Source: an uncultured Actinomycetes bacterium (GTDB taxonomy: Bacteria; Actinomycetota; UBA4738; JBBDTT01). From it: 64,000 nt of DNA. A model generated the notes under the pieces. The model worked only from the letters and a program-made list of their open reading frames with translations. It ran no database searches and was not told the origin of the DNA. The position numbers and the translations under genes are program-made. Positions 20,553 through 29,308 of this stretch are shown here, in pieces. The number at the start of each line of letters is the position of its first letter. Position 1 is the first letter of the stretch. The stretch is from NCBI GenBank assembly GCA_963742735.1, contig CAVUMN010000004.1, positions 1,056,001-1,120,000 of the forward strand, read 5' to 3'.

Positions 20553-20873
20553 ATGAAGATGGCTGAGCCAAGGAACGCGCTGTACGCGACGATCGGCACC
20601 GGTTCGTTCGCGACCGAGCGCGCGAAGAAGCTGGCCGAGCGCATCCAGGGGTACGCGACCGACTACCGCAAGTGGGTGTCGAGCAACTACCGCGACCTGG
20701 TGCGCCGGGGAGAGCGGATCACCAAGAGCATCCGCACCTCCGCGCCGGTGAAGCGCGCGCAGTCGCAGACGAAGACCGCGCAGCGGCAGGTCAAGGCGGC
20801 GACCACCAGCGTCCGCAAGGCGCTCGGTGCGAACGTCGAGGCCGTGGAGTCCGCCGCGAAGAAGGTCAGCTGA
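20553..20873 (+). CDS. HBHA/TadA-like amphipathic helical protein
   Basis: Strong RBS (AAAGGGAGG). 'NALYATIGTGSFA' and 'YRDLVRRGERI' resemble HBHA family motifs. Lies directly after the Rv0474-like regulator. Confidence 0.6.
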   Translation: MKMAEPRNALYATIGTGSFATERAKKLAERIQGYATDYRKWVSSNYRDLVRRGERITKSIRTSAPVKRAQSQTKTAQRQVKAATTSVRKALGANVEAVESAAKKVS

Positions 20874-20890
20874 CCGATTCGCGTCGAATT

Positions 20891-20924
20891 CGAAGGGGCC
20901 CGCCCGGAAGGGCGGGCCCTTTCG
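20891..20924 (+). terminator. Intrinsic terminator-like hairpin
   Basis: cgaaggggcccgccc-ggaa-gggcgggccctttcg immediately after the HBHA-like gene. Confidence 0.8.
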
Positions 20925-20976
20925 CTTGTCCGAGGGAGGGAAGCATCCGCATCGTTTCGGCGTTCCTGAGGTACAC

Positions 20977-22236
20977 ATGACGCAGATGCGTACCGACCCA
21001 CGCCCGCGCGTGGCCTTCGTGAGCCTGCACACCTCCCCGCTCGACCAGCCCGGCACGGGCGACTCCGGGGGCATGAACGTGTATATCCGCGCGGTGGCGG
21101 AGCAGCTCGCGGGCCGCGACGTGGACGTCGACGTCTTCACCCGGTGCCGCGGCCAGGGCGTGCCCGAGGTCGAGGACATCGCCGACGGGGCCCGCGTCAT
21201 CACCGTCCAGGCCGGCCCGTGTGCGCCCATGGCCAAGGCCGATCTGCCCGAGCTCCTGCCGAACTTCCTGGAGAGCGTGCGCGCCTTTCGCCGGCGCGAC
21301 GGGCTGGCGTACGACATCGTCCACAGCCACTACTGGCTGTCGGGCTGGGTGGGGCAGCGGCTGGTGGACGAGCTCCAGGCGCCGCTGGTCGCCTCGTTCC
21401 ACACCCTGGGCAAGGTGAAGAACTTCACGCGCGTGTCGAACGACCTCCCGGAGCCGGCTCACCGGCTGGACCAGGAGGAGCGGGTGGTCGGCCGCGCGGA
21501 CCGCATCCTGGCGCCGACGCCGGCCGAGGCGGCCCAGCTGGTCGGCCTCTACGGCGCGGATCCCGAGCGCGTCCGGGTGATCCCGCCCGGGGTGGACATG
21601 TCGCTGTTTGCGCCGCGCGATCCCGCCGAGGCCCGGGCCCGGCTGGGGCTGGTGGGCAAGCGCGTCCTGGTGTTCGTCGGACGGCTTCAGCAGCTCAAGG
21701 GGCCGGACGTGGCCATCCGCGCGCTGGCCGAGGCGGTGGCGCGCGACCCGGTCGCGACCCGGGACGTGGTGCTCGCCGTGGTCGGCGGCCCCAGCGGTCC
21801 ACGCGACGGCGCCAGCGAGGTCGAGTCGCTCATGGACCTGGCCACGACGGCCGGCGTGGGCGACCGCGTCCAGTTCTACCCGCCGCAGGCGCACGAGCGG
21901 CTGCCCGACTTCTACTCGGCCGCCGAGGCCGTGCTGGTGCCATCGCGCTCGGAGTCCTTCGGGCTGGTGGCGCTGGAGGCCCAGGCCTGCGGCGCGCCGA
22001 TCGTGGGCGCGTCGGTGGGCGGGCTGCGGCTGGCCGTGGCCGACGGCGAGTCGGGGTTCCTGGTGTGCGGCCACGACCCGGCCGACTACGCCGACCGCAT
22101 CCTGCAGGTGCTCACCGACCCGGGCCTGGCGAGCTCGATGCGGGCCCGCGCGCTGGAGCACGCGCGCCGGTTCTCGTGGGGCGCCACCGCCACCGGCACC
22201 CTCGGGGTGTACCGGGAGCTCGGCGCCGCCGCCTAA
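20977..22236 (+). CDS. mshA: D-inositol-3-phosphate glycosyltransferase (mycothiol biosynthesis)
   Basis: 'SLHTSPLDQPGTGDSGGMNVY', 'HSHYWLSG', 'HTLGKVKN', 'PSRSESFGLVALEAQACG'. Confidence 0.92.
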   Translation: MTQMRTDPRPRVAFVSLHTSPLDQPGTGDSGGMNVYIRAVAEQLAGRDVDVDVFTRCRGQGVPEVEDIADGARVITVQAGPCAPMAKADLPELLPNFLESVRAFRRRDGLAYDIVHSHYWLSGWVGQRLVDELQAPLVASFHTLGKVKNFTRVSNDLPEPAHRLDQEERVVGRADRILAPTPAEAAQLVGLYGADPERVRVIPPGVDMSLFAPRDPAEARARLGLVGKRVLVFVGRLQQLKGPDVAIRALAEAVARDPVATRDVVLAVVGGPSGPRDGASEVESLMDLATTAGVGDRVQFYPPQAHERLPDFYSAAEAVLVPSRSESFGLVALEAQACGAPIVGASVGGLRLAVADGESGFLVCGHDPADYADRILQVLTDPGLASSMRARALEHARRFSWGATATGTLGVYRELGAAA

Positions 22237-22320: not shown

Positions 22321-24984
22321 GTGCTGATGACCATGACGACGACGTCTGCCCGCCGCCATCGCGTGGCCGCCATCCTGGTGGCCCTGGCAGTGGCGTTCGG
22401 CGCCGTGGCACTGATCGTCCCCGCCCTCGCCGCCGGCTGCTCGCTGGACCCCAGCCCCTGGCGGAGCATCAACCCCCGCTTCCCGGCCGGCGGCGGCGAG
22501 GTCGCCGCCATCGCGACCCTGCGGTTCACCCCGGCGTACGTCTACGTCTCGAACGGCCCCTCGATCGTTCGGTCCGCCGACGGGGGCTGCACGTTCGCCG
22601 ACGCCCTCACGCTCACGGAGCTGGGCCTGAGTCAGGCGGCCCGCGTCACGCACATGGCCATGTACGCGGGCGACCCGCGGATCGTCTACGCCGTGATCGA
22701 GGAGACGACTCCCACGCACCGGATCCGGATCGCCCGCACGCGCGACGCGGGCGGGGACTGGGTGCTGGACGACGACGGCCTGGAGGCCGCGGTGGGCTCC
22801 CCGCTCGCGTTCGGGGTCGGCACGCGCGACAGCGAGAACAGCCTCTACCTCCTGGTGGGCCCGGCTCGCCTGACGGACGGCGAACCGTCCGTCTCGACCG
22901 GGCCGGTGCTCTACCGGAGCCTCAACCAGAGCGACACGTGGGAGCCGCGGACCGCGCCCGCCGACCTCCTGGGCGTTGGCGGCGCCGGCGAGGGGGATGA
23001 GCTCGACCTGCGAGGCATCGAGCTCGATCCCCGCGAGCCGAACAACGTCTGGCTGTACGGGCCGAGCGGCCTGTTCAAGAGCGAGAACGGCGGGGGGGCG
23101 GTCACGCAGGTCATGACCGAGCCGATCAGCGAGGTGCTCGACATGCGGACGCAGGGCGGGCTGCACTGGGTCCTGGTGTTCCACGCCGAGCGCCGCAGTG
23201 CGTTCCTCTCCCTGGACGGCGGAGGCAGCTTCCGGCCGATCGGCGTGCCGGGTGTAGGGCAGTCCGCGGCGCCGGGACGCGTCGATCTGAAGTCGGGCGA
23301 GTTCGTGATGACCTCGCTCGCCGGCGACGCCTTCCACCGGGTCGAGCTCGACGGGGCCTCCGCCGACCTCTCCCCGGGCGACGGCCGCGCCGTGTACGAC
23401 CTGCAGACCGGGCTCGTCAACAACAGCAACGACCTGGTCGTCTACGGGCGGACGGCGACCTCGCTCGAGCGGATGGTCCTGCCGGGGCCCCCGGTCCTCG
23501 GCGAGAACTCGATCCCGCCTCTGGACCCCGACGACCTCCAGCTCCCCGACGGCCGGACGCTTCGCCGGCCGACCATCGTCCCGCCCGGTGAGCAGGTGAA
23601 GCTCGCCGCCGGCGAACGCCGGACGCTCCCGGTTCGCCTGTTCATGCCGGGGACCCGCCGCGTGGACGTGTTCTTCCTGATCGACGCGTCGGCGAGCATG
23701 GGGCCGGCCATCTCGGGCCTGCGGGGGGCGCTCGCCGAGATCGTCCGGCAGCTGAACGCCGCCGGGATCGACACCTACTTCGGGCTCGCGCTCTACAAGG
23801 GCTATGACCCTCAGGCCGGAGACCCGGCGGACCGGTTCGTGTACCGCCGCATCCGTGACGTGGGCCCGCCCGACCGCGACTTCGTGATCAAGCTGGGCGA
23901 GATCGGCGTGAGCGGCGACGTGAACAACGAGAGCTCGCTGGGCGCGCTGTATCAGCTGGCGACCGGGGCCGGTCAGGACTCTGCGCCGATGTCGATCCCC
24001 GCCGGACAGGGCGCCCACTTCCGGACCGGGGCGCTCCCGGTCGTCGTGCACGCGACGGACGAGGCGTTCTCCCACGCCGCCCCGAACCCCCAGGTCGAGA
24101 CGGTGGCCTCCGCGATGCGGGCGGTGAAGGCGCTGCAGGTGGGCCTCGCCCTGCAGAGGGAGAACCAGGGTCTCATCGACCGCCGCAGCCGGCCCGGCGC
24201 CGATCTGGAGGACATGGCCCGGCGAACCGGAGCGGTCGCGCCGGTGGAGGGGCTGGACTGCGACGGCGACGGGTTCCCGAACCACGGGCCCGGCGAACCG
24301 CTCGTGTGCGCCATCGACCCCGCGCGGTCGAACGACGCGCAGGTGATGGCGCCGGCCATCGTCAACCTGCTGCTCAGCCTGGTGGACCTCGCCGACGTCT
24401 CGCTCGAGGCGAAGAGCGATCCGGGGATCGTTCGCAAGGTGTCCGCGCCCGTCAGAGACGTGCCCCTCAACTACGCCCACCAGCTCGCCTACGCGGTGAC
24501 GGTGGCGTGCCCGCCGTCGGCGGAGGGGGAGTCGCACGAGCTCGAGCTCGAGGCGTTCGCGCGGGGGGCGGCGCTGGCGAGCGGCGCCACCCAGATCGTG
24601 TGCGGCGTTCGGGTGCCGGAGCTCGCGAGGGTGCTGCCGCCGCTGGTGATCAACCCGCCGCCGGCGCCGCAGCCCGTGCAGCAGTCGAACCCGCAGTCCA
24701 ACCCCCAGCCGCAGGGCGCGTTCGCGGCGCAGCGCCAGCAGCAGCATCAGCTCGTATACGGATACGTGAACCCCACCAAGCCGCAGCCCGAGGTGGCTCC
24801 CGCCCGTGAGGAGAGCTACGAGATGCGCCGCGTACGGGAGGAGTTCACCGGCGTCCCGCCGGCGGCGACGTTCCTGACCGGCGCCGCGCTGGCCATGGGC
24901 TTCGCCCTGGCCTCGCGCCGCCGAGCTTCGCCCGCCCTGGCCCGGGCCCGCGTGACGAGACCCCCGAGGAGGAGGACCTGGTGA
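22321..24984 (+). CDS. Secreted BNR/beta-propeller + vWA domain surface protein with Q/P-rich linker and C-terminal TM anchor
   Basis: Signal peptide; Asp-box-like 'RSADGGCTF', 'KSENGG', 'LSLDGGGSF'; MIDAS 'FLIDASASM' and 'VHATDE'; C-terminal TM followed by an Arg-rich tail. Start may be ATG 22327 or 22333. Confidence 0.8.
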   Translation: MLMTMTTTSARRHRVAAILVALAVAFGAVALIVPALAAGCSLDPSPWRSINPRFPAGGGEVAAIATLRFTPAYVYVSNGPSIVRSADGGCTFADALTLTELGLSQAARVTHMAMYAGDPRIVYAVIEETTPTHRIRIARTRDAGGDWVLDDDGLEAAVGSPLAFGVGTRDSENSLYLLVGPARLTDGEPSVSTGPVLYRSLNQSDTWEPRTAPADLLGVGGAGEGDELDLRGIELDPREPNNVWLYGPSGLFKSENGGGAVTQVMTEPISEVLDMRTQGGLHWVLVFHAERRSAFLSLDGGGSFRPIGVPGVGQSAAPGRVDLKSGEFVMTSLAGDAFHRVELDGASADLSPGDGRAVYDLQTGLVNNSNDLVVYGRTATSLERMVLPGPPVLGENSIPPLDPDDLQLPDGRTLRRPTIVPPGEQVKLAAGERRTLPVRLFMPGTRRVDVFFLIDASASMGPAISGLRGALAEIVRQLNAAGIDTYFGLALYKGYDPQAGDPADRFVYRRIRDVGPPDRDFVIKLGEIGVSGDVNNESSLGALYQLATGAGQDSAPMSIPAGQGAHFRTGALPVVVHATDEAFSHAAPNPQVETVASAMRAVKALQVGLALQRENQGLIDRRSRPGADLEDMARRTGAVAPVEGLDCDGDGFPNHGPGEPLVCAIDPARSNDAQVMAPAIVNLLLSLVDLADVSLEAKSDPGIVRKVSAPVRDVPLNYAHQLAYAVTVACPPSAEGESHELELEAFARGAALASGATQIVCGVRVPELARVLPPLVINPPPAPQPVQQSNPQSNPQPQGAFAAQRQQQHQLVYGYVNPTKPQPEVAPAREESYEMRRVREEFTGVPPAATFLTGAALAMGFALASRRRASPALARARVTRPPRRRTW

Positions 24985-27080
24985 GCACCCCGGAGACGAC
25001 GACCGACCTGGGAGACGCCCCCTTCCGCAGGCGCTACGACGCGTGGCGGCTCCGGCGGCGCCGCTCGCGCCAGGCCCGCCGCCCCAGCCCCGGCCGCCGC
25101 ATGACGATCGGGCTGATCGCGGTCGTGATCGTGCTCCTCGGCGCGTTCGGATGGTCCGTCTCGTACCTCACGCCCCGGACCGAGGGCACCCAGCTCTCCC
25201 TGGACGAGCTCGAGGCCCTTTCCGCGGAGCTCCGCGTGGAGACCGCGACCTTCCAGGACGAGGACAACCGCCTGGTCGGCGAGTTCTCGGCGCCGATCCC
25301 ACCCGCCCCCAGGCCCAGGCCGAGGGCCACCGCCTCGCCGAGCCCGTCGCCCGAGCCGGCGGTCGAGACCCCCGTCGGGTCCGGCGCGTACTGGGTGGCC
25401 TACCCGAAGGGCGGCGCGGCGTTCGCGGCCCTGTTCGACACGCTCACCGCCTCGGGCGCCCGCGTCGACGTCGACCCCCAGGTCTCCAAGACGGTCGTGC
25501 GCACCATCTCCACGTACCTGCTGCCCCTGCTCATCCTGGCCAGCGTGTTCGGCCTGCTGTTCGCCACCGGCCGGTCGGGCGGATCCGGCATCGGCGAGGT
25601 CATGACGTTCGGCACCATCGGCAAGAAGCGCTACTCGCGGGGCATGACCGCGCCGACCACCTTCGACGACGTGGGCAGCGCCGAGGAGGCGGTGACCGAG
25701 CTCAAGGAGGTCGTCGACTACCTCCAGGACCCGGATCGCTACGAGAAGATCGGCGCGACCCCGCCCAAGGGCGTCCTGCTGTACGGGCCCCCGGGGTGCG
25801 GCAAGACCCTGCTGGCCAAGGCCGTCGCCGGCGAGGCGAACGTGCCGTTCTTCTTCGTGGCCGGCGCGGAGTTCGTGGAGTCGCTGGTCGGCGTGGGCGC
25901 GGCCCGCGTGCGCGACCTGTTCCAGCGGGTCCGCGCGGTGGCGCCGGCGATCGTGTTCATCGACGAGCTCGACGCGGCCGGGCGCCGGCGCGGCCATGGC
26001 GGCGGCGAGGGCGGGAGCGACGAGCGCGAGCAGACCCTGAACCAGCTCCTGGTGGAGATGGACGGGTTCGAGGTCTCGGCGGGCATCGTGGTCGTCGGCG
26101 CGACGAACCGCCCCGACATCCTGGACCCGGCGCTGCTCCGCCCCGGCCGGTTCGACCGCCACATCACCGTCGAGCAGCCGGACCACGCCGGGCGGGTGGA
26201 GATCCTGAAGCTGCACGCCCGCGGCAAGCCCGTCGACGCCGACGTGGACTACGACTACCTGGCCAAGCGGACCCCCGGGTTCAGCGGCGCCGACCTGGCC
26301 AGCGTCATCAACGAGGGCGCGCTGCTCTCGATCCGCCACGGCCGCAACCACATCGGGACCGAGGACCTCGAGGAGGCCATCCAGCGCGTCCTCCACGGCC
26401 CGAAGCGCCGCGGCCGGCTGCTGACGCCGGAGGAGGAGCGGCGGTCGGCGTACCACGAGGCCGGCCACGCGGTGGTGGCGGCGGCCCTCGGCCGGGCCGA
26501 TCAGGTCCACCGCGTCTCGATCCTCGCCCGCGGCGGCGGCCTGGGGATCACCGCCCTGCAGCGCGACACCAGCGACTCGGTCCTGTTCACCGCGAGCCAG
26601 CTGTACTCGCGGCTGGTCACCGAGGTGGCCGGGCTCGCCGCGGAGTCCCTCGCGTTCGGCGAGATCTCCACCGGCGCCGAGCGCGACCTGGAGCACGCCA
26701 CGGAGATCGCCCGGGACATGGTCGCCCGCTACGGCATGTCGCCGTCCCTGGGACGGCCGCGCCTGATCGCCTCGGACGCGGAGCGGTTCCTGGGAAGCGA
26801 GGGCGCCCTCGGGCAGATCTCGCTGGAGACCGTCCAGGAGCTCGACCGCGAGGTGCGCCGGCTCATGGACCGGGCGGAGTCCGACGCCACGCGGATCCTC
26901 AAGGCGAACCGGCGCATCGTGGACGACCTCGCCCGGAAGCTCGAGAAGGAGGAGTCGCTCGAGGGCCGGCCGCTGGACACGATCCTCGGCAAGGTCCCGA
27001 CCTCGGCCGCCGCGGGCCTGGAGCCCTTCCCCGAGAACGGAACGCGGGTCCGGCGCAGGGCTCCCGCCCCCAAGCACTAG
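24981..27080 (+). CDS. ftsH: ATP-dependent zinc metalloprotease FtsH paralogue
   Basis: Two TM helices, Walker A GPPGCGKT, Walker B 'FIDELD', SRH 'ATNRPDILDPALLRPGRFDR', HEAGH. GTGA overlap with the vWA gene. Confidence 0.92.
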   Translation: MSTPETTTDLGDAPFRRRYDAWRLRRRRSRQARRPSPGRRMTIGLIAVVIVLLGAFGWSVSYLTPRTEGTQLSLDELEALSAELRVETATFQDEDNRLVGEFSAPIPPAPRPRPRATASPSPSPEPAVETPVGSGAYWVAYPKGGAAFAALFDTLTASGARVDVDPQVSKTVVRTISTYLLPLLILASVFGLLFATGRSGGSGIGEVMTFGTIGKKRYSRGMTAPTTFDDVGSAEEAVTELKEVVDYLQDPDRYEKIGATPPKGVLLYGPPGCGKTLLAKAVAGEANVPFFFVAGAEFVESLVGVGAARVRDLFQRVRAVAPAIVFIDELDAAGRRRGHGGGEGGSDEREQTLNQLLVEMDGFEVSAGIVVVGATNRPDILDPALLRPGRFDRHITVEQPDHAGRVEILKLHARGKPVDADVDYDYLAKRTPGFSGADLASVINEGALLSIRHGRNHIGTEDLEEAIQRVLHGPKRRGRLLTPEEERRSAYHEAGHAVVAAALGRADQVHRVSILARGGGLGITALQRDTSDSVLFTASQLYSRLVTEVAGLAAESLAFGEISTGAERDLEHATEIARDMVARYGMSPSLGRPRLIASDAERFLGSEGALGQISLETVQELDREVRRLMDRAESDATRILKANRRIVDDLARKLEKEESLEGRPLDTILGKVPTSAAAGLEPFPENGTRVRRRAPAPKH

Positions 27081-27086
27081 CCGGGC

Positions 27087-27641
27087 TCAGGCCTCGTTCG
27101 GGTCGGGCACGATGGGGGCTTCGAAGGTCCCCCGGATCGAGCCGCTGGAGTCGTGCACGTCGATGGCGCCACAGACCCGCTCCTCGTCCGCGACCGAGAT
27201 CGTCATCTCCGAGCCCTCACCGCCGATCGTGGTGGGGAGGTAGCTGGAGTCCGCCGTCCGCGCGCCGGGGGAGAAGATCGTGTTCTCCCCGGTCACGTAG
27301 GGGTAGGTGCCCGGCGTGGGCAGCTCCTTGTCCATCCGGAACCAGTCGATCTCGATCACGTGGTTCCCCTCGGGGACCTCGTAGAACGACGTGTCGCCGG
27401 GCTCGAGGTCGTAGTCGGCGAAGAAGAGCTGGTAGTGGTCGCCGTACAGGGAGTCGTCCTCGACGACGAACACGAACGAGGTCGAGGGCTCCAGGGAGAA
27501 CTCCGGCATGCTCGAACCGACCGCCGTGAACGAGGTCGTCGCGGGACAGCTGCCCTGCGCGGGAGCCTCGACGGAGGGCGCGTCGTCGCCGCAGGCAACG
27601 AGGCCGAGGACCAGGATCAGCGGGGCGAGGCGGGAGAGCAC
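27087..27641 (-). CDS. Hypothetical lipoprotein
   Basis: GTG start 'MLSRLAPLILVLGLVACG' (lipobox LVAC), acidic beta-rich body. Confidence 0.75.
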   Translation of the reverse strand: MLSRLAPLILVLGLVACGDDAPSVEAPAQGSCPATTSFTAVGSSMPEFSLEPSTSFVFVVEDDSLYGDHYQLFFADYDLEPGDTSFYEVPEGNHVIEIDWFRMDKELPTPGTYPYVTGENTIFSPGARTADSSYLPTTIGGEGSEMTISVADEERVCGAIDVHDSSGSIRGTFEAPIVPDPNEA

Positions 27642-27757
27642 GGCGGCAAGGATACGAGCGGAAGGGTCCCGCGCCCGGAGTTCGCCAAACTTTCTCCGAA
27701 CGACTTTGCGGGGCATCTGACCTGCGACGACGCGACGCCACCAGGGGTTTTGTCTCC

Positions 27758-27786
27758 TTGACCCTGAACGGGCCCGCCAGTACATT
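27758..27786 (+). promoter_or_regulatory. Sigma70/SigA-type promoter driving the ncRNA candidate
   Basis: -35 TTGACC (27758-27763), 17-nt spacer, -10 TACATT (27781-27786). Predicted +1 near G27794. Confidence 0.75.
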
Positions 27787-27793
27787 CCGCCTC

Positions 27794-28099
27794 GCTCCGA
27801 GGTGCTGGAGCGGTCGAATCAGGGAACCGAATGGGACCCCCTGGGAAAGCCGTAAGGCCGACTAGGCGCACCTGCTCGTACGGTTGGGAAGGCCAACTAG
27901 CTGTGCGGGTGGGGAGGCTTGGAAGGCCCCAAAGCCCAACGAAAGGGGTCATCATAAGGAAACCGAGACGGCGGCTAAGGTACCTCGGAGCACCTGACCC
28001 GAGGGGCTGACGGTGGCCGCGAGGTCGGTGGAAGGGGGGCTTGCTCCCCGGAAGCGGAGTCTCTGCGGCGAGCCGAAGGTCCCTCGGGTCTTTAACTTT
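27794..28099 (+). ncRNA. Large structured non-coding RNA candidate (~300 nt; possibly 6S/Ms1-like, family not recognised)
   Basis: Own promoter. Closing stem GCTCCGAGGTGC/GTACCTCGGAGC; second domain closed by GACCCGAGGGGC/GTCCCTCGGGTC; GNRA and CUUG tetraloop hairpins; U-rich end TTTAACTTT; no credible ORF. Confidence 0.72.
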
Positions 28100-28173
28100 C
28101 CCGCCTCCATCCGGTCGCCCGGGTGAGGGGCCCCGGGGGGTGGCGCCTGCGGTGGATCGGAGTGTCTCCTCGG

Positions 28174-28345
28174 GCCAACTCACCGAATATCGCGGCACCG
28201 CTATGTCTCCCAGAGGCTGGCGCCGCACACAAAGGGACGTTCCTGGAGTCTGAGCGGAACCGAGACGGACGCCGGGCGGCCGCGAGTCGAGCCGAACCGG
28301 CCGACGCAGCGAATATAGCGGGCTCGCGATATTCCGTGAGTGGGC
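28174..28345. repeat. REPIN/MITE-like element: 33-bp imperfect inverted repeats, copy 1
   Basis: gccaactcaccgaatatcgcggcaccgctatgt (28174-28206) and atatagcgggctcgcgatattccgtgagtgggc (28313-28345) match 27/33 as inverted repeats; 106-bp spacer. Confidence 0.75.
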
Positions 28346-28409
28346 GTTCGACAGAGCCTCGGTGTCGCTCTGGTTCTGCCTGACCCGCTTCAGCTCCTAC
28401 CAGTCAGGC

Positions 28410-28706
28410 TCATTGCTCCCTCAGCCAGCGTTCATAGGTCGGTTTCCGGCGCCATGGCAGCTTCCGCCAGAGCGGCCTTGAAGGCTCAGGCCAGAAGCAG
28501 CCGCCGGTATTACAACGCTCATCCGGGTCGTAGCCGGCATTGACGTGCTCGTATGCGAGGTGGAAGCAGACCCAATGCATCCGTTCGAACGTTTCGTAGT
28601 CCTGGGCGTTCACCCGAACTGGCTCCCCACAGCGAGCGCAGATGCGTGCTCCAGCCACCGCGTGGTCCACAGCGGGAGTCTTACGCACGCCAGGGTTCCA
28701 GTCCAC
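28410..28706 (-). CDS. Hypothetical Cys/His-rich putative metal-binding protein
   Basis: 'CARCG...ERMHWVCFHLAYEH...DPDERCNTGGC'; lower-GC codon usage than neighbours. Confidence 0.6.
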   Translation of the reverse strand: MDWNPGVRKTPAVDHAVAGARICARCGEPVRVNAQDYETFERMHWVCFHLAYEHVNAGYDPDERCNTGGCFWPEPSRPLWRKLPWRRKPTYERWLREQ

Positions 28707-28761
28707 GAGATCGCCCGGAGCGGGTGCAAGAGTCGTACGGCAGGTTCGATACCCTTACGTC

Positions 28762-29308
28762 ATGCCCGGAGATGCGCTTATCGTCGTCGACGTGCAGGAG
28801 GGGTTCACGCGGCTCGGGAACCTCGCCAGCCCGGTGTGCACCGAGGCCATCCCGCGGATCGTCAGCGTCGTCGAGTCCGCCTTCAACGACGGCACTCCCG
28901 TCATCTTCACCAAGGACTCGCACGTCGAGAACGACCGCGAGTTCGAGATGTTCCCGCCGCACTGCATCGTGGGCACGCCCGAGCACGACCTGGTCGAGGA
29001 GCTGCGGCCCTTCGAGGGCCGCGCCACCGCGGTCATCGAGAAGCGCCGGTACTCCGCGTTCTTCGAGACCGACCTCGAGGGGCTGCTGCGAGAACCTCGG
29101 CGTCGAGGCGGTGCGCGTGGCCGGGCTGTGTACCGACATCTGCGTCCTGCACACCACCTCGGACCTGCGCAACCGCGACTACCCGGTGACCGTCCTGGCC
29201 GAGGGGTGTCAGACGTTCGACGCGCCGGGGCACGACCACGACGAGGTCAACCGGTGGGCGTTCGCCCACATGAAGGGGATCCTCGGCGCGACGGTCGAGG
29301 GGGAGTAG
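28762..29308 (+). CDS. Cysteine hydrolase (isochorismatase/nicotinamidase family); frameshift near 29090
   Basis: 'ALIVVDVQEGF', 'DSH', 'FPPHC', 'KRRYSAFFETDL', then 'GLCTDICVLHT' in the shifted frame. Confidence 0.88.

Follow-up and report, generated by a model that had tools for sequence, protein, structure and literature searches.

The window analysed here is a 64-kb stretch of DNA from an uncultured actinobacterial genome (G000), and all coordinates below refer to it unless another contig is named. It contains a single-copy gene for a conserved, structured RNA on the forward strand, at 27794-28098, and relatives of this RNA are present in public RNA libraries. An initial annotation had proposed an independently promoted, multi-domain RNA of unrecognised family at this place; the observation is real apart from a branched inner fold and a third stem. 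The best reading of the evidence is that the gene encodes a trans-acting scaffold or binding RNA. The letters of the region were read directly at 27758-28165, and its features are as follows.

27758..27763 (+): -35 hexamer TTGACC; TTGAC is kept in aligned loci and in array-type orthologues
27781..27786 (+): -10 hexamer TACATT after a 17-nt spacer; relatives have a TAnnnT box at the same place
27794..28098 (+): whole predicted RNA, about 305 nt, made up of the domain 1 rod, domain 2 and a U-rich tail; from its fold z-score and a conserved block from 27794 to about 28093
27794..27806 (+): 5' strand of P1, the closing helix, pairing with 27979-27991; 13 pairs in RNAalifold
27831..27956 (+): conserved rod core (covariance model R1); from covariation in alignment A2
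27849..27858 (+): GCC-GUAA-GGC element with a GGGAAA 5' flank; resembles a module repeated 3-10 times in array-type relatives
27888..27896 (+): apical 9-nt loop GAAGGCCAA; its centre, GGCC at 27891-27894, is self-complementary and is the proposed kissing contact
27979..27991 (+): 3' strand of P1; part of the first 18 columns of covariance model R2
27996..28090 (+): domain 2, with a 13-bp base stem, a purine-rich 4x4 internal loop, a GGU/GCC helix and a variable tip; terminator-like
28091..28098 (+): U-rich tail UUUAACUU, the presumed 3' end; T-rich runs follow the stem in aligned relatives

The promoter is the only sigma-70-like site between 27500 and 28800 (TTGACC-17 nt-TACATT, 27758-27786); shuffled sequences lead to an expectation of 0.1. 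In a flank-inclusive alignment of 30 loci, both hexamers are conserved. Conservation begins at the G that opens the first helix and ends past the T-rich run after domain 2; beyond this run the flanks cannot be aligned, even within a genus. Promoter spacing and the onset of conservation place the probable transcription start near G27794. A terminator scan gave no call at the U-rich tail. Both the near-consensus promoter of the initial annotation and its independent promotion of a two-domain structured RNA of about 300 nt are borne out by the conserved promoter, the sharp 3' end of conservation and the covariation described below.

The 305 nt fold at -175.2 kcal/mol on the forward strand (z -8.98), and none of 100 shuffles folds as well; the fold is therefore better than that of shuffled controls, as expected from the initial annotation. 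For the opposite strand of the same 305 nt the value is z -1.57, which 7 of 100 shuffles equal or better. In alignment A2, several G-U pairs are unchanged in 35-39 of the 39 core sequences. Since these pairs fit only the forward strand, this is the RNA strand. The stretch is present once in the genome, which comprises 3.08 Mb in five contigs and is 88.9% complete.

The fold of domain 1 was examined in two alignments. A1 holds 29 full-length sequences, seven of them from unpublished genomes with counterparts also in A2 and in A3 (the domain 2 alignment); A2 holds 39 diverse cores with a mean column identity of 82%. Domain 1 alone (27794-27991) folds with z -7.44. RNAalifold predicts 85 pairs on A1, 39 of which have double (compensatory) changes, and draws domain 1 as a single long irregular hairpin. 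G27794 opens the terminal stem as initially annotated; the helix with 27979-27991 has 13 bp in RNAalifold rather than 12 and shows compensatory changes. For example, pair 6/210 of P1 is G-C in 26 sequences of A1 and A-U in three, and pair 9/207 has six double changes. A local 5' hairpin, GCUCC..GGAGC, was considered as an alternative to P1 and rejected, as it is broken in several relatives when read from A1.

Within the core, covariation supports a long rod and not the multibranch fold that was initially drawn. The rod model pairs 95.6% of cells in A2, compared with 85.8% in shuffles, and 21 of its 38 pairs have double changes, compared with 11.4 in shuffles. None of 500 shuffles matches these values and slid controls pair at most 56% of cells. 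The GACCCC/GGGGTC helix of the initial annotation (27835-40 with 27945-50) is paired and covaries in A2. The inner helices of its proposed junction are poorly paired and have many mismatches: 69.2% of cells are paired for CACCTGC/GCGGGTG, 79.5% for GTTGG/CCAAC and 86.5% for GGCTT..GGCC. The internal-loop strands of the rod core, CUGGGAAAG (27841-49) and GCCCAACGAAA (27934-44), are near-invariant. The GCC-GUAA-GGC columns are almost invariant too and so carry little information for or against the hairpin; the one A-U double change seen there in A2 favours rod pairing.

Domain 2 (27996-28098, including the tail) folds with z -4.88. On A3, which holds 31 sequences, 94.9% of its cells are paired and 12 of 25 pairs have double changes; none of 500 shuffles scores as high. 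The second domain at 27996-28090 is closed by the stems initially assigned to it, and covariation is found in homologues: in 39 of 85 pairs on A1, 21 of 38 in the core (A2) and 12 of 25 in domain 2 (A3). The tip is variable. In the window RNA it carries a CUUG loop at 28040-43; in many relatives it is 20-30 nt shorter, and many have a short stem with a UUCG loop. The third stem that had been suggested at about 28105-28162 does not stand. The fold of 28100-28170 is matched or bettered by 116 of 200 shuffles (z +0.24), and in the 30-locus alignment the region is not conserved even within the same genus.

The RNA does not belong to a catalogued family. A search of the whole window against Rfam 15 at gathering score gave no match to it. 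At E<=10, the region 27600-28450 yields four matches and no more, all at chance level and to unrelated families; the highest reaches 15.6 bits where the gathering score is 35.6. None of seven variant loci matched Rfam at gathering score or at E<=10, and ARAGORN found nothing in the window. The description as an unrecognised family is upheld by the lack of any Rfam 15 match for the window RNA or its variants. The standard RNAs are found at other loci of the genome: RNase P RNA at C2:192412-192788 (263.8 bits), transfer-messenger RNA (tmRNA) at C4:1495551-1495901 (136.1 bits), signal recognition particle (SRP) RNA at C4:496058-496157 (78.5 bits) and a canonical raiA motif RNA at C4:1455684-1455894 (132.9 bits). 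A misfiled RNase P RNA, tmRNA, SRP RNA or raiA RNA is rejected on this basis. Literature searches with conserved strings, for mshA-linked ncRNA (non-coding RNA) motifs and for abundant unknown soil RNAs did not find the RNA described; the literature returned on motif discovery consisted of general papers and of motifs already in Rfam.

Two open reading frames (ORFs) overlap the RNA, of 59 codons at 27831-28010 (+) and 203 codons at 27617-28228 (-). In principle, the conservation could reflect a protein encoded by one of them, and a stop-free reverse-strand frame spans the RNA in 19 of 29 homologues; such frames are common at 70% G+C. Neither ORF has a Pfam match. The segment of the forward ORF differs in length from that of the window by a number that is not a multiple of three in 16 of 29 homologues and is stop-free in only ten. 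Non-start triplets take the place of its ATG in 16 of 39 cores (counted by eye in columns 1-3 of A2), and the ATG columns covary as a helix. Substitutions are compensatory, and the invariant G-U pairs fit only a forward-strand RNA. A coding function is unlikely in the extreme.

Part of the stretch is held by 20 of the 24 public sequencing runs listed, none of which holds half of the sampled words; six of the 24 are recorded as RNA. Four metatranscriptome runs from three studies, picked for holding this sequence, were studied as Logan contigs. Their contigs cover 27786-28033 only. The empty flanks are uninformative, because flanks are not conserved and the contigs come from relatives. Summed word depths are about 1.27 million (584 contigs), 113,000 (167 contigs), 5,500 (49 contigs) and 4,300 (18 contigs); being summed over relatives in chosen runs, these figures show presence at high depth and not ranked expression. 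Given the very high word depth in four libraries, the RNA may be taking up metatranscriptome reads unannotated.

Two apparent transcript ends in these data were rejected. The apparent start at 27796-27800 is an artefact, as the TCCGA of the TruSeq adapter itself matches there, and Nextera ends at 27990 are a product of tagmentation. Some contigs, with depths of 783, 491 and 1,789, join 27946 back to 27839 via about 30 other letters and agree with the tandem-core RNAs described below (L098, L042).

By DNA search, the stretch is present in 54 of 61 genomes from the same order (G000 among them), with 75-89% identity over long matches. A pattern scan covering one genome for each species turned up at least 119 stretches. 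The 80 scan records listed are all metagenome-assembled genomes (MAGs), mostly titled Actinomycetota bacterium, Actinomycetes bacterium or similar; one is labelled Solirubrobacterales and one bears another name. Distribution was then measured with two covariance models: R1, a core of 124 positions, and R2, which comprises the 3' strand of P1 and domain 2 (83 positions). The class-level sample consisted of 150 genomes plus G000. All 150 carried the same order label, so class and order coincide in this sample. R1 matches 87 of the 151 genomes. R2 matches 142 of 151, and 99 of the 101 that are at least 90% complete, with one match in nearly all. Nearly all members of one order-level clade of mostly uncultured Actinomycetota have the RNA, usually in a single copy.

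In a phylum-wide draw of 151 genomes, 135 of them outside the order, R1 gives ten matches: six in the order, and two strong and two weak matches outside it (4/135). One of the two strong matches is from an unpublished genome, G299. R2 gives 19 matches, ten in the order and nine outside it (9/135), in families f11, f52, f18 (5/10) and f14 (2/10). The MAG contigs L061, L065, L087, L105 and L118 end inside the RNA, and some MAGs hold the RNA on two contigs. Both observations suggest that those bins contain strain mixtures or at least two nearly identical copies.

The RNA lies in a conserved neighbourhood. An MshA-like glycosyltransferase is encoded upstream on the same strand in 74 of the 82 loci with at least 1.5 kb of upstream sequence, and proline dehydrogenase or ProC downstream on the same strand in 55 of the 61 loci whose downstream sequence extends for 1.5 kb or more. 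Between the RNA and the proline dehydrogenase or proC gene there is a TetR gene in 24 of these 61 loci and an isochorismatase-family gene in ten. Other neighbours in relatives are GNAT and YbjN-like genes. The same gene order is kept in a genome of another class. In the window, the neighbours are:

20827-22236: MshA-like gene, upstream of the RNA
24981-27080: FtsH-like gene, between the MshA-like gene and the RNA
27087-27785 (-): divergent ORF, also between the MshA-like gene and the RNA
from 28762 (+): isochorismatase-family gene, the next same-strand gene, 664 nt past the RNA, followed by proline dehydrogenase and ProC

The divergent ORF has no Pfam match and its start region shares a short intergenic space with the RNA promoter; by eye, its N-terminus resembles a lipoprotein signal peptide with a lipobox. 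Downstream, the 664-nt gap before the isochorismatase gene agrees with the annotated absence of a same-strand gene for about 660 bp. The gap (28099-28761), possibly an insertion, has a lower G+C content, 60-65%, and is missing from relatives in which about 40 nt separate the RNA from the isochorismatase gene. It contains a 98-codon, Cys/His-containing ORF at 28410-28706 (-) with no Pfam match. The isochorismatase gene itself (28762-29308) changes frame near 29090-29100. Its N-terminal part matches PF00857 (E 1.8e-22) and its C-terminal part continues in the frame of ORF 28553-29308. The gene is either frameshifted or affected by an assembly error.

This gene order raises the question of a cis-acting leader, i.e. 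a riboswitch or attenuator of the isochorismatase or TetR gene, proline dehydrogenase and proC, with domain 2 as the terminator of its expression platform. The persistence of proline dehydrogenase or ProC downstream, also in a genome of another class, speaks for such a leader. In addition, P1 and the base of domain 2 share CCGAG/CUCGG strands which could in principle pair alternatively; these columns are invariant, so that no covariation can be counted there. However, the gene that immediately follows the RNA varies, and the gap in the window holds an opposite-strand ORF. MshA is equally conserved upstream, and the constant order may therefore reflect nothing more than a shared neighbourhood. 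A TAYRMT box, 5-12 nt ahead of an ATG or GTG and at most 110 nt past domain 2, is seen in 19 of 101 loci; a downstream mRNA would then start after the RNA. In these loci the box recurs as ccTATACT, which suggests that leaderless mRNAs are common in the clade. Paralogues and second copies of the RNA are found at unrelated places. Invariant 13-bp helices, both in P1 and in the terminator stem, are atypical of a switch, and the interior varies while the supposed platform is the best conserved part (R2 in 142 genomes, R1 in 87). A cis-acting leader is very unlikely. The varying downstream genes and the -10 boxes behind the RNA favour a trans-acting RNA over a riboswitch, as the initial annotation had argued.

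The apical loop was tallied in 114 cores from 110 loci; 110 cores were parsed by pattern, three by a looser pattern and one by eye. Of the 256 four-base words that can be formed, only 16 are palindromes. The centre of the loop is a perfect palindrome in 98 of the 114 cores: GGCC in 60, AGCU in 27, GUAC in five, GCGC in four and GAUC in two. A further four centres can pair with themselves through wobble pairs (GGCU in three cores, GUGC in one). Every perfect form other than GGCC is a double change from GGCC that keeps self-complementarity. AGCU is found in families f5, f7 and f8, and GCGC in f6 and f8. Divergent paralogues and homologues from other classes, a set in which L179 and L191 are from unpublished genomes, carry GCGC, GUAC, GGCC, AGCU, GGCU or AGCC. 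In the contigs from RNA libraries, G>A at 27891 and C>T at 27894 occur at similar shares, 72% and 60% of depth in one run and 43% and 40% in another, and the two middle bases are not listed as variable. The self-complementary loop word has thus been maintained through double changes, and selection acts to keep the loop palindromic.

The two middle bases of the loop are adjacent and are unable to pair with each other within one loop; pairing between molecules is therefore the simplest reading. Whether the RNA forms a kissing-loop homodimer through its apical loop is, judged from these patterns, a matter of roughly even odds.

The interior of the RNA is exchanged in some relatives. In several genera of family f5, R1 fails and R2 matches. 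At the same syntenic place between mshA and proC, these genomes hold array-type RNAs of about 360-520 nt (some lengths are approximate), which share the promoter, closing helix and domain 2 of the window RNA and have a bundle of small hairpins instead of the rod. Their fold z-scores are -7.8, -7.94 and -10.86. A table of 86 GNRA-capped hairpin modules from 16 RNAs, with 3-10 modules per array-type RNA, has GCAA loops in 52 cases, GCGA in 17 and GAAA in seven; the 5' stem strand is GCC in 56 of 86 and the flanks are purine-rich. The module consensus is close to CCGG-GAAG-GCC-GCAA-GGC-CGGA-ACGG, and the GGGAAA-GCC-GUAA-GGC element of the window RNA is similar. Array-type orthologues at L173:2061-2585, L174:1995-2375 and L177:2025-2395 (-) contain 5-10 GNRA hairpins and GA-rich internal loops. 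As array and rod types share only the promoter, closing helix and domain 2, these parts either serve a common function or form a chassis for stability or processing around an exchangeable interior.

Some f5 genomes also hold a rod-like paralogue at another locus. The example at L175:2020-2210 (-) (G067:C1, near 1440661) is about 190 nt long and has its own promoter and a T-rich tail, without domain 2. Its genome carries an array-type RNA at the syntenic place, and the paralogue itself sits at an unrelated position. Comparable model matches of 105 nt are found in other genomes of genera g5 and g14.

A third arrangement is seen in one lineage, at L098:390-830 and L042:690-1106, where two tandem rod cores share one promoter, one closing helix and one domain 2; a normal single-core copy adjoins the tandem-core unit. 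The tandem-core RNA at L098:390-830 folds with z -5.95. The loop pairs in these units are GUAC with GUGC, or GUAC with GUAC, and are mutually complementary. Two cores joined in this way would amount to the proposed dimer in covalent form.

The palindromic loop and the GNRA modules with their GA-rich internal loops, repeated 3-10 times in array-type relatives, could also drive self-assembly into an RNA-only body like those of ROOL, GOLLD and OLE, in which architecture is itself the function. The depth in RNA libraries fits such an assembly, and homo-oligomers of natural RNAs are documented (PMC12286853, for bacterial RNAs; 10.64898/2026.07.01.735769). However, the RNA is much smaller than ROOL or GOLLD, and the array-type RNAs lack the palindromic loop. 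We consider an RNA-only assembly rather unlikely.

The preferred reading is that of a stand-alone, strongly expressed, stable and uncatalogued ncRNA that acts in trans as a loop-dimerised scaffold or sequestering RNA; we give this reading as a whole a probability of about 55%. A sigma-A-type promoter would start transcription near G27794. The first 198 nt or so fold into one long irregular rod, closed by the nearly invariant 13-bp helix and interrupted by purine-rich internal loops of almost fixed sequence, and the terminator-like second domain (27996-28090) would end the transcript. The likeliest working form of the trans-acting RNA would be a homodimer joined tip to tip through the four self-complementary loop bases. 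In such a dimer, the conserved internal loops and the GNRA-hairpin module could serve as exposed docking sites, either for a protein or in RNA-RNA packing, which would suit a role as a scaffold or as a sequestering RNA. The cis-leader and coding readings are both unlikely.

Several points weigh against this reading. Twelve of the 114 cores are not self-complementary in the loop (AGCC in eight, AGCG in four). Fitch parsimony gives 24 changes of the loop word (FastTree, 91 distinct cores, the four bases masked), a count that is probably inflated, as about 120 columns underlie the tree. A kissing contact of four base pairs is weak. Since array-type relatives keep P1 and domain 2 without the rod or loop, contact at the tip cannot be the function of the whole family. 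The library depths are sums over assembled contigs of relatives and are a poor measure of expression. Finally, the alignments and tallies are drawn in part from unpublished genomes (G006, G014, G027, G030, G031, G039, G049, G052, G069, G115, G122, G148 and G299).

More tentatively, the gene may encode an unrecognised housekeeping-grade RNA of a class-level clade that associates with itself by a kissing loop into a symmetric dimer or a larger RNA or ribonucleoprotein (RNP) body. Its interior would be modular (a star of up to ten GNRA hairpins in one family), and the promoter, closing helix and 3' domain would be fixed. We regard this wider version as possible rather than probable. If true, common soil organisms would contain a previously undescribed cellular RNP or RNA assembly, comparable in rank to 6S, Ms1, raiA and OLE, that has escaped the catalogues of RNA families until now.

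Only a small number of RNAs occur almost universally, and mostly as a single copy, across a bacterial class, and the known ones (RNase P, tmRNA, SRP and 6S) are core machinery. The window RNA joins this short list for a poorly studied, mostly uncultured soil lineage. Its palindromic loop provides a direct, cheap and falsifiable dimerisation hypothesis, and the exchange of rod for array amounts to a natural experiment that can show which parts of the molecule are important. The R1 and R2 models could seed an Rfam entry and improve the annotation of Actinomycetota MAGs.

Among known systems, 6S RNA and Ms1 are among the closest. Like the window RNA, 6S RNA is abundant, independently transcribed, about 200 nt long and a long irregular hairpin. 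According to PMC4191392 and PMC9130861, Ms1 (MTS2823/scr3559) is a highly expressed Actinomycetota RNA of about 300 nt with its own promoter, and it binds the core of RNA polymerase. By analogy, the window RNA might be an abundant rod that binds RNA polymerase and tunes transcription in slow growth. Its strong housekeeping-type promoter, own terminator, rod of about 200 nt and high depth in RNA libraries are all in keeping with such a role, and the genome has no match above cut-off to RF00013, the 6S family.

Several differences from 6S RNA argue against this role. The window RNA lacks a large central bubble; its largest internal loop, about 9 by 10 nt, is near-invariant, and the part that appears open allows a drawing with a 3x3 purine loop between two 2-bp helices. 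It is the sequence of the loops and not just their shape that is nearly invariant, unlike in 6S. RF00013 gives no match at 27600-28450 even at E<=10. The best RF00013 match in the genome is to a different conserved RNA, outside the window at G000:C3:707401-707508 (L032:1501-1608), which scores 20.1 bits against a cut-off of 46.4. Sub-threshold matches are found in 11 of 41 relatives, at up to 41.9 bits against the same cut-off; aligned to the C3 locus, they make up a single conserved RNA, about 190 nt long, that has a promoter-like box of its own. This RNA is probably the divergent 6S RNA of the clade, below the Rfam threshold, and seems to take the 6S role. The existence of a separate 6S-like RNA weighs against the window RNA being 6S, and a misfiled 6S RNA was rejected on this ground.

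The comparison with Ms1 is by neighbours and description only. In PMC9130861, Ms1 is flanked by a HAD-IB hydrolase gene (the 'inhibition of morphological differentiation' gene) and an oxidoreductase gene, and is listed only for orders of the class Actinomycetes. Those flanking genes are absent from the window locus; the window RNA family lies instead between mshA and proline dehydrogenase or proC. Moreover, R1 and R2 have no match in most other Actinomycetota families sampled, and in one family the interior is exchanged for hairpin arrays. The separate 6S-like RNA, the lack of an RF00013 match and the absence of the Ms1 neighbours agree with the initial view that the RNA fits neither family well. 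A functional analogue of 6S or Ms1 is unlikely.

The raiA motif RNA (RF03072) is likewise an abundant structured RNA of about 200 nt in Actinomycetota, often with its own promoter and terminator. RF03072 has no match at the window RNA locus even at E<=10, and the true raiA RNA lies elsewhere in the genome.

With respect to the proposed dimer, the window RNA would share a loop-loop contact between copies of one RNA with self-associating natural RNAs (OLE, ROOL, GOLLD, the HIV-1 dimerisation hairpin and the phi29 packaging RNA, pRNA). The HIV-1 dimerisation site has the format of a 9-nt hairpin loop with a palindromic centre flanked by purines. Unlike in these systems, the palindrome of the window RNA is only 4 nt long and the dimer is deduced solely from variation between sequences; none of these RNAs is related to the window RNA in sequence.

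The array-type relatives resemble the sponge RNAs CsrB and RsmZ, in that 3-10 near-identical small hairpins are carried in one transcript, a layout which in CsrB and RsmZ soaks up many copies of one protein. The repeated unit differs: it is a GNRA tetraloop on a GCC/GGC stem with GA-rich flanks and not a GGA loop. CsrA is not expected in Actinomycetota.

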